Below, one piece after another: positions 20,949 through 27,520 of a DNA stretch of 28,757 nucleotides. Position 1 is the stretch's first letter, and every line of letters begins with the position of its first letter. A program made the position numbers and the translations under genes. Where the stretch lies: the sequence record SRR20825006_226; one strand, 5' to 3'. The notes under the pieces are model-generated. The model searched no databases, was not told the DNA's origin, and saw nothing but the letters and a program-made list of their open reading frames with translations.

Positions 20949-21182
20949 ATGAAACTACTAGTACTAAATCTTACCCGAAGCATTAAAGAAAATGAGATCA
21001 AAGCTCTCTTTGAGAAATATGGCACGGTGGAAAGCTGTGATTTGGTTTTAGATAAAAGCACACGTAAGTCCAAAGGTTTTGCCTTTGTGGAAATGCCTGT
21101 CGAAGATGAAGCCAATGTAGCTATCAAAGAATTGCATGGCAAAAAAGTTGTTAATCATTCCATAAAAGTAAAACCAGCTTAG
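20949..21182 (+). CDS. Single-RRM RNA-binding protein
   Basis: 77 aa; RNP1 KGFAFVEM, RNP2-like LLVLNL, LFEKYGTVES, AIKELHGK. Confidence 0.92.
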   Translation: MKLLVLNLTRSIKENEIKALFEKYGTVESCDLVLDKSTRKSKGFAFVEMPVEDEANVAIKELHGKKVVNHSIKVKPA

Positions 21183-21880: not shown

Positions 21881-21942
21881 TACCACTTTATAGGTATTAA
21901 AAATCTCTTTTGGGAGATGTTTTTATACACTTTTGTGTGATG
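21881..21942. promoter_or_regulatory. Three phased operator-like boxes upstream of the 132-aa gene
   Basis: TACCACT-TT-ATAGGTA (21881-21896, 7-2-7 inverted, NarL-like), ATCTC-N6-GAGAT (21903-21918) and TACACTTTTGTGTGAT (21926-21941); starts spaced 22 and 23 bp; related boxes recur at 26124-26662. Confidence 0.6.
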
Positions 21943-22038: not shown

Positions 22039-22437
22039 ATGAGCAACATAATTAAGTCAGTGCAATTAGCAACCAGCAGGGAAGCAAAAGCCTCTGGAAA
22101 ATCCGGCCCCAACGATGTCTTTTATAGTTCTACAGATTATAATTTCCCAGTACCAAAAAATCTAACCAAAGTGATCCTCTGCAGTAATCCTGATGGAACA
22201 GGTGACACGTTTGTGAATGATCAAATAAGCATCTCAGTAAATGGTACCCTGATTTATAAACATGATTACACCCACCGTAACCAAGGACATATCACACCTC
22301 TTGCACCTCAAAGTCTGATATTCTCATTTCATAATTATGAAGGACAAAGTGTAACAATAGAAACAAAGTATACTGATTTATACACAAACAGTAATGGAGC
22401 TTCAAATTTCTATTTATACATAGAAAGTAATGGCTAA
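22039..22437 (+). CDS. Hypothetical protein, probably beta-sandwich, no signal peptide
   Basis: 132-aa ORF with SD-like GGAGAGG, followed by a structured terminator; beta-strand-like pattern (FVNDQISISVNG). Confidence 0.75.
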   Translation: MSNIIKSVQLATSREAKASGKSGPNDVFYSSTDYNFPVPKNLTKVILCSNPDGTGDTFVNDQISISVNGTLIYKHDYTHRNQGHITPLAPQSLIFSFHNYEGQSVTIETKYTDLYTNSNGASNFYLYIESNG

Positions 22438-22559: not shown

Positions 22560-23216
22560 CTATTCTATCAGGCCAAGAATAAAAGCTTTTTTTATCATCC
22601 CGGCAGTGTTCTTCACATCTAGTTTCGCCATAATGTTCTTGCGATGGGTCTTGACGGTATGCTCGCTTAGGAAAATTTTATCGGCAATTTCTTTCATGGT
22701 TAGTTCCTCACCGATTAGCTTAATCAATTCAATTTCTCTATCAGTAAGTTGGCTTGACACTGAATCTCGTTTATGAGAACCTTGAGACTCTGAGGAAATT
22801 TTATAGCCACCCACAATTACTTCCATTATTTCTGGGCTAAAGGCAAAACTCCCTTCTGCCACTTTTCTAATGGAGTCTTTCAGCTCCGGAAAACCTGTGC
22901 TTTTTAAAAGGTATCCAGAAATTCCGCTTTCCATTAATCGGCTTACAAAGTCTTCGCTAAAGTAGGTACTGAGCATAATAACTTTAATCGAAGGATATTG
23001 ATGAAGCACATTTTCAGCAACATCAACACCATTGGTGCTTCCCATTTCAATATCCAAAAACAAAACATCCGGCAAACCACCTTCTGCTAGGTAGCGCATC
23101 AAATCCAATCCGTTATTGAAGGTCTTCATTACTTCAAAATCGTCTGAACGTGAAAGTAATGCTTCCACGCCTTGTACAAATACCTGATGATCGTCAACGA
23201 GTATAATTTTTATCAT
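22560..23216 (-). CDS. NarL/FixJ (LuxR-HTH) family response regulator
   Basis: REC domain (LVDDH, FLDIEM, MLST, GYLLK) plus LuxR HTH LTDREIE...KEIADKIFLSEHTVKTHRKNIMAKL. Confidence 0.95.
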   Translation of the reverse strand: MIKIILVDDHQVFVQGVEALLSRSDDFEVMKTFNNGLDLMRYLAEGGLPDVLFLDIEMGSTNGVDVAENVLHQYPSIKVIMLSTYFSEDFVSRLMESGISGYLLKSTGFPELKDSIRKVAEGSFAFSPEIMEVIVGGYKISSESQGSHKRDSVSSQLTDREIELIKLIGEELTMKEIADKIFLSEHTVKTHRKNIMAKLDVKNTAGMIKKAFILGLIE

Positions 23217-23217
23217 A

Positions 23218-25617
23218 TTAGTTTAGCGCTTCGGAACTCCATCCTTCCTTGTTTAGTGGAATTTGAATATTGATATCCACTCCCTTCCCTTTTGCAGTTT
23301 GCAACTGGAACTCTCCACCAAGTAATTTCACTCGGTTTTCCATATTACCAACTCCATAACTTTCCCGCTCACTTTTTGGTGTATTATTTTCGGAAGGATC
23401 AAACCCAATTCCATTATCCTTTATTTTTAACGTTAAATACTTCCCATCTGTTAATAATAACTCTATCACATCTGCTTTCGAATACTTAAGTGCATTACTT
23501 AATGCTTCCTGAATAATCCTAAATACATTAATTTCTATATGGGTATCAAGGTTTTCGCTTAAATTGATATTGCTTTGAACTTCTACACCAATTTTACCAA
23601 TTTTGATCAGTAATTCATTTACATCATTTTTTAAGCCATCTCCAGAAATTTTTCCTTCTTGCATTTCTTTGATGATGGCACGAACTTCCAAAAAAGCATC
23701 ATCCAAAAACCTATTCCCTTCTTCAAAGTGATTATATAGCTCTGGTTGTTTTTCTTTGATGTCTTCATTTAAGGAGCTGAAGTACAATTTAACCAAAGAA
23801 AGAATACTACCTAAACGATCATGGAGCTCTGCCGCTAATCGCTTTCGTTCTTTGTCTTGGCCTTCAAGCATTGCTCCAATCGTTTTCAATTGTTGGTTAT
23901 TAAGTAAAGAGTCGATCTCTTTTTGGTAAATTTCTTCCTTCTGTGAAGCAATAATTCGTTTCTTTCTAGAGCTATAAACAAACCAAAAGGTGATGCCAAT
24001 AGCAGCGCTAAAAAGAGCTAATAGCCCAATAATTAGCAATTTTTTTTCAGCATTTCTTTTTTGAATGAGCGCTTCATTTTCTGCTTGTTCAGCGGTTAAG
24101 ACTTTAATCTCTGTATCCTTCTTTTCAGTCTCGTACTTAGTAATGAGTTCTTCAATTACTTTTGTTTTCTCAGAATTCAACAAGCTATCCTTCATGGTGT
24201 TGTATCTAAATAAATACTCATACGCCTTAGGAAAATCTTCTTTTAGTTCATATACATCAGCAATAGCAGATAGTGCTCTAGTCTCAAAGCTCAGGTGATC
24301 TGAATTAAGGGCATTTTCTAGGCTTTTTTGAAAGAAAGAAAGAGCTTTATCATATTCTGACCTATAGTAGTGGTTAGATCCAATATTAAAATATAGCTCA
24401 GCTAGTTGTCTTTGATTGCCTGAATTCTCATATACATCCAACGATTTTTCGAAATATTGAAGTGCGGTTCCATACTCATTCTTCTCATTATATATTGCTC
24501 CAATATTATTATATACAAGGGCTGCTGATTCATTGTCACCCAGTGCTTCATATTCAGAAACAGCGAGGTTGAAGTAATAAAGAGAAGAATCGGGCTGGTT
24601 TAGATTCAAAAAAATTACCCCAATGTTTTGAAGCATACTGCCAATCCTTTGCGGATCTTGAAACTTCTCATATACTTTTAATGCTTTAGAATAATACTCG
24701 ATTGCCTGATCAGAATAGCCCTGTTTTTCATACACATACCCAATTTTTTCAAGTCTGGACGCTATTTGTTTGTCTTCGTTTATCCCAGCCTTATTCAGTA
24801 GAAAAAGGCTTTCTAAATAGTTCGCAAGGGCTTCTTCGTAGGAGCCTTGACTAAAAAACACATTACCCATATTTAAAATCACTAAAGAAAGGCCTGCAGT
24901 ATCCCCGACAGATTCTTGTACTTTACGATACTTTTGATAGTAAAACATAGCATTTTCATATTCAGCCTCTTCTGACATCCAGTTGCCAAAATTTAAATAC
25001 GAAGTAGAAACGCTACGTTCATCTCCAAGCTTTTCTTTTATTTCAATACTTTTTAGATAACTCTCATAGGCTTTCTCCTTTTCACCCATAATGCGGTATA
25101 GGCTTCCCATGTTATTCAAGGTTCCAGCAGCTCCCAAAACATTTCCCACTTCCTCTTTAAAGGCTATACTTTTTTGGTAACTCTCTAACGCTTCCTCATA
25201 TCGTCCCGTACCTCGATATAACAATCCTATCCGGTTGTAAGAGTCTCCCAGTTGCATCGTATTGTTTCTTTCTTCGCTTAAAACAATACTCTGTTTAAAG
25301 AAGTCCTCTGATTTTGCAGGATCCCCAAGTCTCCGGTAAATCCTACCCTGCAGATCCAACATCTGCTCCTCAAATGGGGAGTTTAGGCCTTCGGATTTAA
25401 TAAGTTTAATTAGATATTCCGCATAGTAAATACTGGAATCCATGGTCGCGGGATAGAAATCTTCAGCTTTGTTAGCCAAATATTCAACTTTGTCCTGATT
25501 CTCAGCTGCACACACTGGTTTTACAAAGGCTACAACAAAAAGTAGCCCTAATAAAACCAAAAGCATGCTTTTATTCGCCCCAAATACAAAATAATTCTGA
25601 GGGCTATGTCCTTTCAT
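23218..25617 (-). CDS. Sensor histidine kinase with extracytoplasmic TPR array (HisKA_3/HATPase)
   Basis: N-terminal hydrophobic signal, many TPR repeats (SYNRIGLLY...YEEALESYQKS etc.), TM helix, H-box ERKRLAAELHDRLGS, FRIIQEALSNALKYS, IKDNGIGF, YGVGNMENRV. Confidence 0.93.
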   Translation of the reverse strand: MKGHSPQNYFVFGANKSMLLVLLGLLFVVAFVKPVCAAENQDKVEYLANKAEDFYPATMDSSIYYAEYLIKLIKSEGLNSPFEEQMLDLQGRIYRRLGDPAKSEDFFKQSIVLSEERNNTMQLGDSYNRIGLLYRGTGRYEEALESYQKSIAFKEEVGNVLGAAGTLNNMGSLYRIMGEKEKAYESYLKSIEIKEKLGDERSVSTSYLNFGNWMSEEAEYENAMFYYQKYRKVQESVGDTAGLSLVILNMGNVFFSQGSYEEALANYLESLFLLNKAGINEDKQIASRLEKIGYVYEKQGYSDQAIEYYSKALKVYEKFQDPQRIGSMLQNIGVIFLNLNQPDSSLYYFNLAVSEYEALGDNESAALVYNNIGAIYNEKNEYGTALQYFEKSLDVYENSGNQRQLAELYFNIGSNHYYRSEYDKALSFFQKSLENALNSDHLSFETRALSAIADVYELKEDFPKAYEYLFRYNTMKDSLLNSEKTKVIEELITKYETEKKDTEIKVLTAEQAENEALIQKRNAEKKLLIIGLLALFSAAIGITFWFVYSSRKKRIIASQKEEIYQKEIDSLLNNQQLKTIGAMLEGQDKERKRLAAELHDRLGSILSLVKLYFSSLNEDIKEKQPELYNHFEEGNRFLDDAFLEVRAIIKEMQEGKISGDGLKNDVNELLIKIGKIGVEVQSNINLSENLDTHIEINVFRIIQEALSNALKYSKADVIELLLTDGKYLTLKIKDNGIGFDPSENNTPKSERESYGVGNMENRVKLLGGEFQLQTAKGKGVDINIQIPLNKEGWSSEALN

Positions 25618-26012
25618 TATTCGTCTTCAGCATCTTCATAAGTTACTTGCGAGCTTCCCGATGGAGGAGGGGGATCACCGCCACCAACTTCACCTGTTAC
25701 CGTAATACTTTCATTCATATTTACAGTTATCATAGAGGCTGATGTTATTCCACTTCCAGTAGAAGGCAAGGTACATGTTCTAAGAACTGCTTTCCAAGAA
25801 CTTGGAGAACCAGAACCCGTTACAGGTATATCGACTGTCACGGCATCCCCTGATGAAGTTACAGCACATGCGCCTACGGCATAATTAGACGGAACCGTAA
25901 TCAGCGCGCTTAAAGTGTAAATGTTTTCAGTAACAGTTAATCTTAAGTATGGTACTATTTTATAAACTGAAGACCCACCTTCTGTTAAATCGAGAGTATT
26001 CTTTTCGCTCAT
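25617..26012 (-). CDS. Hypothetical Ser/Thr/Gly-rich protein, first gene of the TCS operon
   Basis: 131-aa ORF; its TAA overlaps the kinase ATG (TAATG), implying translational coupling; ends GGGDPPPPSGSSQVTYEDAEDE. Confidence 0.75.
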   Translation of the reverse strand: MSEKNTLDLTEGGSSVYKIVPYLRLTVTENIYTLSALITVPSNYAVGACAVTSSGDAVTVDIPVTGSGSPSSWKAVLRTCTLPSTGSGITSASMITVNMNESITVTGEVGGGDPPPPSGSSQVTYEDAEDE

Positions 26013-26123
26013 AGCTATTATAGATTTAAGAGTTTGATTTAAACTATTTAATAAAAAGCATTCACTAGAAAATTAAAACACTAAAACCCACAGAAATGGT
26101 GTTGCTAAATGTACTTTATAGTA

Positions 26124-26140
26124 ATCTATTTTGAGAGATG
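26124..26140. promoter_or_regulatory. Operator-like box upstream of the TCS operon
   Basis: ATCTATTTTGAGAGATG, 15/17 identical to 21903-21919 (ATCTCTTTTGGGAGATG). Confidence 0.5.
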
Positions 26141-26414
26141 CACTTACCTATTAAATATGTCCTTTCATAGCAACATACTATCAATAGTGCATGAATACAA
26201 GCTACTATTCGCTAAAATTCATTTTTATTTGTTAGAATTTTCCTCCTAATTCGAGCATTAAATACCACCAAATTATCCACTATTAATAGTCTTAGAATTT
26301 TACTTCTCTAGATACTTTAGTCAGTCCTCCAAATTATTCAAACTATCCCTAAAAAGTGGTACTACTCCATAGCCTTTTGAGTGATGTTATTGAAAACCCA
26401 TTCCCTCATCTTGT

Positions 26415-26608
26415 TAAAAGTTCAAGTGTAAAGAACTATCAGATATAAATCTGAAACTAGAGTTTTTGAAATAGTGGATCGAGATAACACTCTAATATAG
26501 AGTAGAGTTTGCCTAGGGGTATTGTAAAAGCGAAAAAGATGAGGGAAGTTGACCTCCCTCATCATCCTTCCGAGCCGTGTGGATTAGTAGCCGCACGGCT
26601 CTTTTTTT
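26415..26608 (+). ncRNA. Putative small RNA, copy 1 (5' end approximate)
   Basis: Follows the conserved operator/promoter block; no credible ORF; hairpins 26538-26563 and terminator 26572-26608 covary with copy 2. Confidence 0.55.
26572..26608 (+). terminator. Rho-independent terminator, repeat unit 1
   Basis: GAGCCGTGTGG-ATTAGTAG-CCGCACGGCTC then T7. Confidence 0.85.
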
Positions 26609-26690
26609 GTTCTTCAGACTATCCCTAGAAAGTGGTACTACTTAATAACCTTTTGAGTGATGTTATTAAAAACCCATTCCCTCATCTTCA

Positions 26691-26887
26691 TTAGGAGTTC
26701 AATTGAGCACTATATGACAGATAGAGTTAAAACGAACTTGGTGTTCAAATAACAAATGGGTAAGCACTTTAACATAGAGCACATGATTGATTTCGGGGTA
26801 CAGTAAAAGCGAAAAGAGAGATGAAGGAAGTTGACCTCCTTCATTATCATTCTGGGCCGTGTGGGGTAGAGACCACACGGTTCCTTT
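26691..26887 (+). ncRNA. Putative small RNA, copy 2 (5' end approximate)
   Basis: Paralog of copy 1; hairpin 26820-26845 and terminator-like hairpin 26854-26887. Confidence 0.5.
26854..26887 (+). terminator. Terminator-like hairpin, repeat unit 2 (short U-tract)
   Basis: GGGCCGTGTGG-GGTAGAGA-CCACACGGTTC then CTTT. Confidence 0.6.
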
Positions 26888-27025
26888 AAATATACACATG
26901 ACGTTTGTGTCGCATAGTTTAGTCGCTATGCGATTCTTTAAATTAGTAAACACTAGTTAATAAATCTTGCCGATTGACGAGCTAATATCAAGTTAAATTC
27001 AAACGAACCTAAAGAGGAGTTAATA

Positions 27026-27520
27026 ATGAAATCTTCAGAAAATAATGGACATACCATTGGCGATTATACAGCAGACAACATTTTCCTCCGCATGGATGGT
27101 TCAGAAGTAAAAGAGTTCATGCCGTATGGTGGTGGAAGTGTAAATTGTCAGGTCGAAGCTGGACCTTGGGAAAAATTTAACATCCAGAAACAAACTGATA
27201 ATATTTATACTATTGAGTCCATTGCTTTCCCTGGAGTTTACCTTCGCATGGATGGAAGAGGTGTAAATGAATCTAACCCAATTGGCGGTGTAGTTAACTG
27301 CCAACTTGGCGCCGGGCCTTGGGAGAAATTCAAGATTACTATACACCTATATGGCTATTCCATCGAATCTGTTTCCTTTCCAGGTGTATTCCTTCGAATG
27401 GATAGTGATAATTGTTCCGTCAATTCCGCCCCAGGATGCGGTTCTATCAGCTGTAGCTTTGGAGTTAGCATGACAGCTCCAATAAGAGGTCTTTTTTATA
27501 TTAAGCCGATACTTCCATAA
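27026..27520 (+). CDS. Fascin-like beta-trefoil repeat protein
   Basis: SD GAGGAG; three internal repeats of (IES..FPGV)[FY]LRMD...GG.VNCQ..AGPWEKF.I; no signal peptide. Confidence 0.75.
   Translation: MKSSENNGHTIGDYTADNIFLRMDGSEVKEFMPYGGGSVNCQVEAGPWEKFNIQKQTDNIYTIESIAFPGVYLRMDGRGVNESNPIGGVVNCQLGAGPWEKFKITIHLYGYSIESVSFPGVFLRMDSDNCSVNSAPGCGSISCSFGVSMTAPIRGLFYIKPILP

Follow-up and report, generated by a model that had tools for sequence, protein, structure and literature searches.

Two-component-driven paralogues are a known functional kind of small RNA (sRNA), exemplified by OmrA and OmrB, the EnvZ-OmpR-dependent tandem sRNAs of enterobacteria. Regulators of the LuxR/NarL type typically bind inverted repeats as dimers. 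Bacteroides is not known to carry Hfq. PMC11697453 describes RRM-1 proteins that bind sRNAs in Bacteroides and, in B. thetaiotaomicron, the FopS/GibS sRNA family with its fourteen copies and the RRM-1 protein RbpB. A full-text literature search, judged by title and abstract, found nothing on sRNAs of Balneola. Here, we analyzed a stretch of 28,757 nucleotides (nt) from sequence record SRR20825006_226 (the window), whose host is Balneola (Balneolaceae) and for which the nearest genome compared was G001. At 26334-26888 on the + strand, the window carries two tandem head-to-tail units, a and b, with a period of 276 nt. These are probably independent paralogous sRNA genes, which would be activated by the neighbouring response regulator via a palindrome and would act in trans.

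An earlier note on this DNA had described two copies with a period of 276 nt, each made of a conserved 5' block, a diverged middle and a conserved 3' block, and this layout was confirmed. The 5' block corresponds to direct repeat D1 (26334-26412 and 26610-26688; 79 nt, 91% identity, spacing 276 nt). The 3' block is covered by repeats D3 (26516-26536 and 26795-26815, 90% identity) and D2 (26537-26605 and 26819-26887; 69 nt, 80% identity), and in both units the diverged middle lies between the two blocks. The predicted sRNA a occupies 26419-26608 (+, ~190 nt), with a start that is placed from a -10-like hexamer to within 5 nt on either side and a 3' end after the T run. The predicted sRNA b occupies 26695-26888 (+, ~194 nt), its start being placed in the same way, and both lengths agree with the ~190 nt estimated before. 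The fold z-score was -4.3 for the predicted sRNA a and -1.95 for the predicted sRNA b. A covariance model of the 3' domain (R1) gave 89.3 bits on 26517-26606 in unit a and 88.5 bits on 26796-26887 in unit b.

The earlier note had recognized no known family, and a scan of the whole window against Rfam 15 likewise gave zero matches at the gathering threshold. When the region 26000-27100 was scanned with E values up to 10, the matches were at chance level; the best one (SdsR_RyeB, 20.5 bits; threshold 38) was limited to the terminator. In genome G001, only the two tandem copies matched the units, the next best match having E = 0.003 over 28 nt. Because G001 carries only these two copies, the units are not a dispersed repeat of the repetitive extragenic palindromic (REP) or miniature inverted-repeat transposable element (MITE) kind, an origin that the note had named as an alternative. 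Elsewhere, one or two units were found per genome.

The conserved 5' block is, judging by its alignment, the promoter. The first ~100 nt of 22 units from six genera were aligned, and the alignment proved gap-free over 75 columns, from an operator palindrome through a second box to the -10-like hexamer. Indels and divergence set in directly after this hexamer, and identity between units falls there to 43-87%. The invariant or near-invariant columns belong to the palindrome, to the second box (G44, G46, A47 and T48) and to positions 2, 5 and 6 of the hexamer, the first and last of these being an invariant A and an invariant T. In the window, the hexamer reads CATCTT in both units (26407-26412 and 26683-26688, +; the latter also seen in repeat D8), and the alignment suggests its promoter role. 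The second box (CTTTTGAGTGATG) is located at 26374-26386 (+) in unit a, where it spans -45 to -33 and overlaps the predicted -35 region, and at 26650-26662 (+) in unit b. Further upstream lies an operator-like pseudo-palindrome. In unit a (TATCCCT-AAAA-AGTGGTA, 26344-26361, +) its predicted centre is at about -66 and it aligns with the palindrome of other genera; in unit b (26620-26637, +) it has zero mismatches to the pattern. Most genera have a perfect 6-4-6 palindrome, TACCAC-N4-GTGGTA, of which the left half is degenerate in the window. Since conservation ends at the hexamer, as for a promoter ending at -7, transcription would start near 26419 and 26695, within 5 nt on either side.

We considered the 5' block as a part of the RNA and rejected this, as it aligns without gaps, resembles a promoter and recurs in front of a protein gene, p132. 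In single-sequence folds, TATCCC of the block pairs with a GGGGTA that precedes the downstream hairpin H2; this long-range pairing fails in G159, G082 and G183, whose units were read by eye. A hairpin proposed by RNAalifold inside the block (H1) was 87.5% paired and contained one covarying pair only. The CU-rich stretch 26397-26412 was rejected as a 5' seed, being situated between the predicted -35 and -10 and not conserved across genera. The 5' arm of H2 in unit a (26533-26547) is complementary to the promoter spacer and -10 of both units (26401-26415, 93%; 26677-26688, 100%). This complementarity (I1, I2) is not kept in G159, again from units read by eye, and could be relevant only in read-through transcripts.

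The perfect palindrome occurred once per genome in all five genomes tested (four genera), each time at the unit promoter. When the second box was searched as an exact pattern in five Balneola genomes, the matches listed were all located at the units or upstream of p132; these were seven matches in four genomes and, for G001, the three first-listed loci. The p132 gene (22039-22437, +; 132 amino acids (aa), unknown family) is a putative co-regulated gene, and both elements are present in its upstream region. They form a third operator copy at 21881-21897 and a promoter box at 21930-21942 (21881-21942 in all, +), which are conserved in the four genomes compared, the window copy being identical to that of G001. 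Because the same elements precede a protein gene, operator and box probably act as DNA.

The units stand divergently upstream of an operon on the - strand. Its first gene is p131 (25617-26012), which codes for a 131-aa protein of unknown family without a Pfam hit. It is followed by a histidine kinase with TPR repeats, HisKA_3 and HATPase_c domains (23218-25617) and by a response regulator with a receiver domain and a GerE/LuxR-type helix-turn-helix (22560-23216). Of the 23 genomes of the genus searched with BLAST, six contained units, as pairs in G001, G115 and G159 and singly in G082, G183 and G167, and in all six they hold this position. Genome G099 has a diverged copy of the operon with a diverged unit in the same place. 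In a profile search, p131 homologues were detected in 18 of 201 sampled Balneolaceae genomes, belonging to six genera, and every one of the 18, including all 11 outside the genus, has a unit divergently upstream of the operon. The same arrangement is present in one metagenome contig, which was the 1 true homologue among the 121 loci listed in a metagenome pattern scan. The search of 151 family genomes with model R1 gave 17 hits of at least 47 bits, all in 15 p131-positive genomes; the next hit, at 39.7 bits, is a different RNA. The distribution is patchy (6 of 43 sampled genera) and confined to Balneolaceae as far as searched. This synteny, the uniqueness of the site and the binding of inverted repeats by LuxR/NarL-type regulators make the encoded regulator, proposed here from synteny and operator, the likely activator.

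The 3' module consists of hairpin H2, a CU-rich linker and an intrinsic terminator. In unit a, H2 (26538-26563, +) has a 9-bp stem and an 8-nt loop. In unit b, it (26821-26846, +) folds around the same loop and differs by a G-C to A-U double change, which the earlier note had observed. The loop, which the note called invariant, is shared in six of the nine Balneola units of alignment A1, whereas other genera carry other loops. The terminator of unit a (26572-26608, +) is formed by a GC-rich 11-bp stem (26572-26601) with an 8-nt loop and seven U residues. That of unit b (26855-26888, +) has an 11-bp GC-rich stem (26855-26884) with two G-U pairs and a short U tail, and the G-U pairs in the terminators are those that the note had pointed out.

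The pairing of both helices was examined in the homologues. In nine Balneola units, 97.5% of the H2 cells were paired. With the model-fitted alignment, which leans towards structure, two-sided changes were seen in six of the nine H2 pairs. For the terminator, the sequence-based alignment of 21 units gave 93% of cells paired and two-sided changes in 11 of 11 pairs, and over the two alignments compensatory changes affected 10-11 of the 11 pairs. Taken together, the two helices had 84% of cells paired, compared with 41-53% in slid controls. These changes uphold the idea that selection acts on RNA structure. The gap-free promoter alignment, the compensatory changes and the synteny with a two-component system also support the earlier proposal that each unit would comprise a promoter, a ~190-nt sRNA and a terminator. 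In cross-genus consensus folding, the terminator was the only consensus helix, and no such helix emerged in the 5' part or in the middle. Unit-by-unit folding of the sequence just before the linker gave a hairpin in most lineages, made of unrelated sequences. The small hairpin that had been reported in the middle part does exist, but it is weak (78% of cells paired in the nine Balneola units) and was not recovered in other genera.

The helices also point to the transcribed strand. In 21 homologues, G-U pairs filled 48 cells and A-C combinations filled 11, which agrees with the remark of the earlier note that the G-U pairs favour the + strand only; the G-U pairs of the terminator would read A-C on the opposite strand. 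Folding energy alone does not tell the strands apart. The G-U bias, the U tails and the promoter position together lead us to take the + strand as the RNA strand.

The most conserved stretch of the RNA is the linker, in which TCCTT is nearly invariant (21-22 units) and the consensus is UGUCCUUCC. In unit a, the linker (AUCCUUCC, 26564-26571, +) is predicted to be single-stranded and is a candidate seed or protein-binding site. In unit b (26847-26854, +), the degenerate AUCAUUCU stands in its place, as it does in G001 and in unit b of G115, and unit b of G159 has the consensus. The minimum free energy folds left the linker unpaired, with the hairpin closed on its own, in 10 of 21 units, including unit a; in the remaining 11, some of the linker is drawn into an outer helix. 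In genomes other than the six close Balneola genomes, the 5' half also contains conserved single-stranded motifs. In G019 (L220, 2132-2272), G183 (L049, 6011-6047) and G167 (L050, 5975-6011), a tandem duplicate of the linker and terminator module immediately follows the first terminator.

The mechanism that we propose, in which we infer transcription, start site, regulator binding, seed and targets, would run as follows. The two tandem paralogous genes on the + strand would each have their own activator-dependent promoter and intrinsic terminator. The TPR histidine kinase would phosphorylate the LuxR-type response regulator, which would then bind the palindrome and switch on both RNAs and probably p132. 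The RNAs would act post-transcriptionally without Hfq or CsrA. The search for Hfq (PF17209) gave no match in five Balneola genomes that are 98-99% complete, with controls matched in 5 of 14 genomes, and the search for CsrA (PF02599) gave none in the five genomes searched, with matches in control genomes. The predicted RNA a contains three GGA triplets, of which one lies at the top of the H2 stem and another borders the terminator loop. The likeliest active site would be the CU-rich linker (UCCUUCC) between H2 and terminator, which could pair with purine-rich ribosome-binding sites. This pairing is the weakest step of the scheme, and it is suggested by the conservation of the linker, its single-stranded context and the Shine-Dalgarno-like sequences of the organism, which occur in the host genome stretch, for example before 27026.

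Possible pairing partners were sought in the window. The only strong local complementarity of the unit a linker was to the 3' end of the kinase gene, upstream of the regulator gene (9 bp, -16.4 kcal/mol). Feedback on the regulator mRNA was rejected, as this match is not conserved in G115 and G082 and is absent in G183, G167 and G099. Linker matches to p132 and to other translation starts in the window were within background.

Several observations weigh against independent sRNA genes. In the sequence-based alignment across genera (21 units), only 73% of the H2 cells were paired and two-sided changes affected four of the nine pairs. In genus g12, three genomes (G087, G012 and G051) have a weak hairpin before the linker. 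The linker of unit b has lost two of its four C residues, and this unit may be diverging or decaying. The unit promoter is below the threshold of a sigma-70 scan, a weak match that fits activator dependence, and the start site is set by conservation alone. No conserved target was found within the window. In several genera, a 92-aa open reading frame (ORF) starts ~25 nt after the terminator, so that read-through may occur there. All homologues come from one bacterial family, and their sequences are not independent.

The first alternative is that the units are cis-acting leaders or attenuators, long structured 5' regions in which a conditional terminator controls read-through into the next gene, here the trefoil-like gene or, in other genera, the 92-aa ORF. 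A + strand gene does follow the units in the window and in G001, G115, G159 and G082. The 92-aa-family ORF comes soon after the terminator in G112, G120, G078, G019, G030, G127, G114 and the metagenome contig, which leaves little room for a promoter of its own, and the short U tail of the unit b terminator would also suit a leader. What decides for us is that the downstream gene varies: it is trefoil-like in four genomes (four of the six Balneola genomes compared), UbiB-like in two, convergent in four (G099, G087, G012 and G051) and of the 92-aa ORF family elsewhere. The UbiB-like gene of G183 and G167 is ~400-550 nt away, the 92-aa-family ORF of G159 lies upstream of the units, and a search of G099 detected no trefoil-like gene. 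The terminator being the only consensus helix, folding gave no conserved alternative (anti-terminator) pairing, and two full promoter and terminator units in tandem exceed the need of a single leader. Because the downstream gene differs between genomes, we do not read the units as leaders; a universal leader role is unlikely, and the explanation as a whole is quite unlikely.

The downstream gene of the window (27026-27520, +) codes for a trefoil-like protein of 164 aa with three internal repeats, which gave a sub-threshold Pfam hit to AbfB (beta-trefoil) only. The 92-aa ORF family (e.g., L217, 895-1173, -) has no Pfam match and is usually located just downstream of the RNA. In G159, the family member lies between p131 and unit a. 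Four Balneola genomes contain separate homologues at other places, and the matching stretches are interrupted by stop codons.

The search with R1 also revealed a second, different candidate sRNA of ~135-150 nt with the same 3' end, that is, a hairpin, CAAUGUCCUUCC and a terminator. It is found at loci L239-L253 (e.g., L239 at ~1170-1600; L253 belongs to G035, a genome of the genus of the window). The module was present in all 14 weaker R1 hits inspected, and some R1 hit was obtained in 47 of 151 family genomes. The second candidate lies divergent from a conserved small protein gene, and six of its loci gave no match to an Rfam family.

According to the second alternative, the RNAs bind a protein, as a decoy or as clients of a chaperone, and the hairpin, UCCUUCC and terminator serve as a platform. 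It would account for the same 3' module (hairpin, AAUGUCCUUCC, terminator) at the end of a second, unrelated candidate sRNA in many Balneolaceae genera and for the tandem duplication of the linker and terminator module in three genomes. A candidate partner is encoded ~5 kb from the units by an RRM_1 gene (20949-21182, +; 77 aa, E = 5e-21), which is syntenic with p132 in four genomes (G001, G082, G115 and G159); RRM-1 proteins bind sRNAs in Bacteroides according to PMC11697453. After this gene, ~850 nt up to p132 contain no ORF of at least 100 aa. Against a platform of this kind, a single site in each RNA would be little for a sponge, and neither the search for CsrA, negative in five of five genomes, nor the mere three GGA triplets of RNA a would fit a CsrA decoy. 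We regard this explanation as distinctly improbable. A combined version, which we hold to be unlikely yet worth stating, is that the kinase and regulator pair has the RNA genes and p132 as its only direct targets, and that the UGUCCUUCC module, shared with the second sRNA, docks a global RNA-binding protein, for which the RRM protein is one candidate. If true, the pathway would, like Gac/Rsm, have the RNA as its obligate output, in a phylum in which no Hfq or CsrA was found, and a new post-transcriptional hub would emerge.

It is very unlikely that the units function only at the DNA level, with duplicated regulator sites and terminator-like hairpins that shape flanking transcription without a functional RNA. 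The promoter/operator DNA is indeed the best-conserved part, and in other genera the palindrome is only ~55 nt from the start of p131, so that it could serve the divergent operon. The compensatory changes and the G-U bias in two helices nevertheless argue for selection on RNA, and the linker and internal motifs are conserved across genera at 100-200 nt from the operator. Finally, small proteins of 46-47 aa encoded on the - strand and starting inside H2 are scarcely credible: the ORFs at 26422-26565 and 26710-26850 share an N-terminus, similar ORFs occur in seven of nine Balneola units and indels of 3 and 6 nt lie just upstream of H2, but the ORF is absent in unit a of G115, altered in unit a of G159, frame-shifted after ~15 residues between species and absent or unrelated in all other genera and the metagenome unit, for which reason we consider the units non-coding, and its conserved part coincides with H2, where paired double changes and the G-U bias fit RNA and not codons.

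Independent sRNA genes thus remain our preferred reading, and the history of the pair can be followed in the genomes with two copies. Over the 3' 90 nt, the a copies form one group (88-96% identity), and a second group (80-94% identity) consists of the b copies and the only copy of G082. Because the 3' halves group by copy, the duplication predates the split of G001, G115 and G159. The G159 pair shows 98% identity over the 5' 80 nt, where its members are only 75-80% identical to their orthologues. The match of these copies to each other over their orthologues points to gene conversion of the promoter half, which indicates that the high 5' identity between copies is in part a product of concerted evolution. 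The 5' identity stressed in the earlier note is real, but it is to be read in part in this way.

Further observations concern the surroundings of the units. The window looks like a mosaic: its kinase and p131 are 97% and 96% identical to those of G115, but 89% and 73% to those of G001, and its RNA units, regulator and p132 are 100% identical to those of G001. This suggests recombination inside the locus (22560-26012 versus 26334-27520). The 320-nt spacer between p131 and unit a contains two ~60-nt direct repeats (D5 and D6) at 26232-26340. An extra terminator-like hairpin is present at 26909-26934 (+), between unit b and the trefoil-like gene.

If sRNA genes they are, the locus would be a compact circuit of a sensor kinase, a LuxR-type regulator, a genome-unique palindromic operator and one or two sRNAs, present in six genera. 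The tandem pair itself bears the marks of a duplication, of gene conversion in its promoter half and, in one copy, of a seed that may be decaying. The 3' module held in common with a second RNA family hints at a lineage-specific handling of sRNAs, and the covariance model obtained from the locus can be used for annotation.

Among known systems, OmrA/OmrB, which we compared by description and by the Rfam scan, offer the nearest arrangement: adjacent paralogous sRNA genes, each with its own terminator and its own promoter (here deduced from conservation), similar ends, a diverged middle and presumed control by a response regulator. They differ from the units in that these have no Rfam match and a host in which no Hfq was found. 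In place of the 5' seed of OmrA/OmrB, the units have a 5' block of promoter DNA and a conserved RNA element near the 3' end. The regulator is of the LuxR/GerE and not of the OmpR type, and the phylum is another one. The proposed regulatory logic would be close to that of GacS/GacA with RsmY/RsmZ and of BarA/UvrY with CsrB/C, in which a regulator of the NarL/LuxR family controls often two paralogous RNAs, a nearly genome-unique palindrome precedes the sRNA genes and the RNA appears to be the main output. Unlike the case of RsmY, RsmZ and CsrB, CsrA/RsmA was not found here in any of five genomes and RNA a has only three GGA triplets; the palindrome and the RNA are different ones, and a protein gene, p132, seems to share the operator.

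The csRNAs of streptococci, which depend on CiaRH, are several sRNAs that one response regulator drives directly, as is proposed here; they too have intrinsic terminators and an unpaired CU-rich region as a potential partner of ribosome-binding sites. In contrast to them, the units have a palindrome and not a direct repeat, RNAs about twice as long, and an origin in an unrelated phylum. The Qrr sRNAs differ by a sigma-54 promoter pattern (-24/-12), of which the invariant columns of the 22-unit alignment, inspected by eye, contained no conserved GG/GC pair at the corresponding spacing, and by Hfq, which was not found here. With the FopS/GibS-RbpB system of Bacteroides thetaiotaomicron (PMC11697453), the locus has in common a related phylum group, paralogous sRNAs that share a short conserved sequence and an RRM-1 protein as a candidate partner, although the RRM_1 gene at 20949-21182 is a lead only. 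The units differ from FopS/GibS in their link with a two-component system and in their copy number, which is one or two in each genome and not fourteen. The analogy with Qrr, RsmY/Z, csRNAs and OmrA/B drawn in the earlier note therefore holds for the functional kind, and not for membership, as the Rfam scan, the searches for Hfq and CsrA and the promoter, which is not of the sigma-54 type, place the units in none of these families. As far as its sequence allows a judgment, the pair represents a new RNA family, which would belong to a known functional kind, that of two-component-driven sRNA paralogues.

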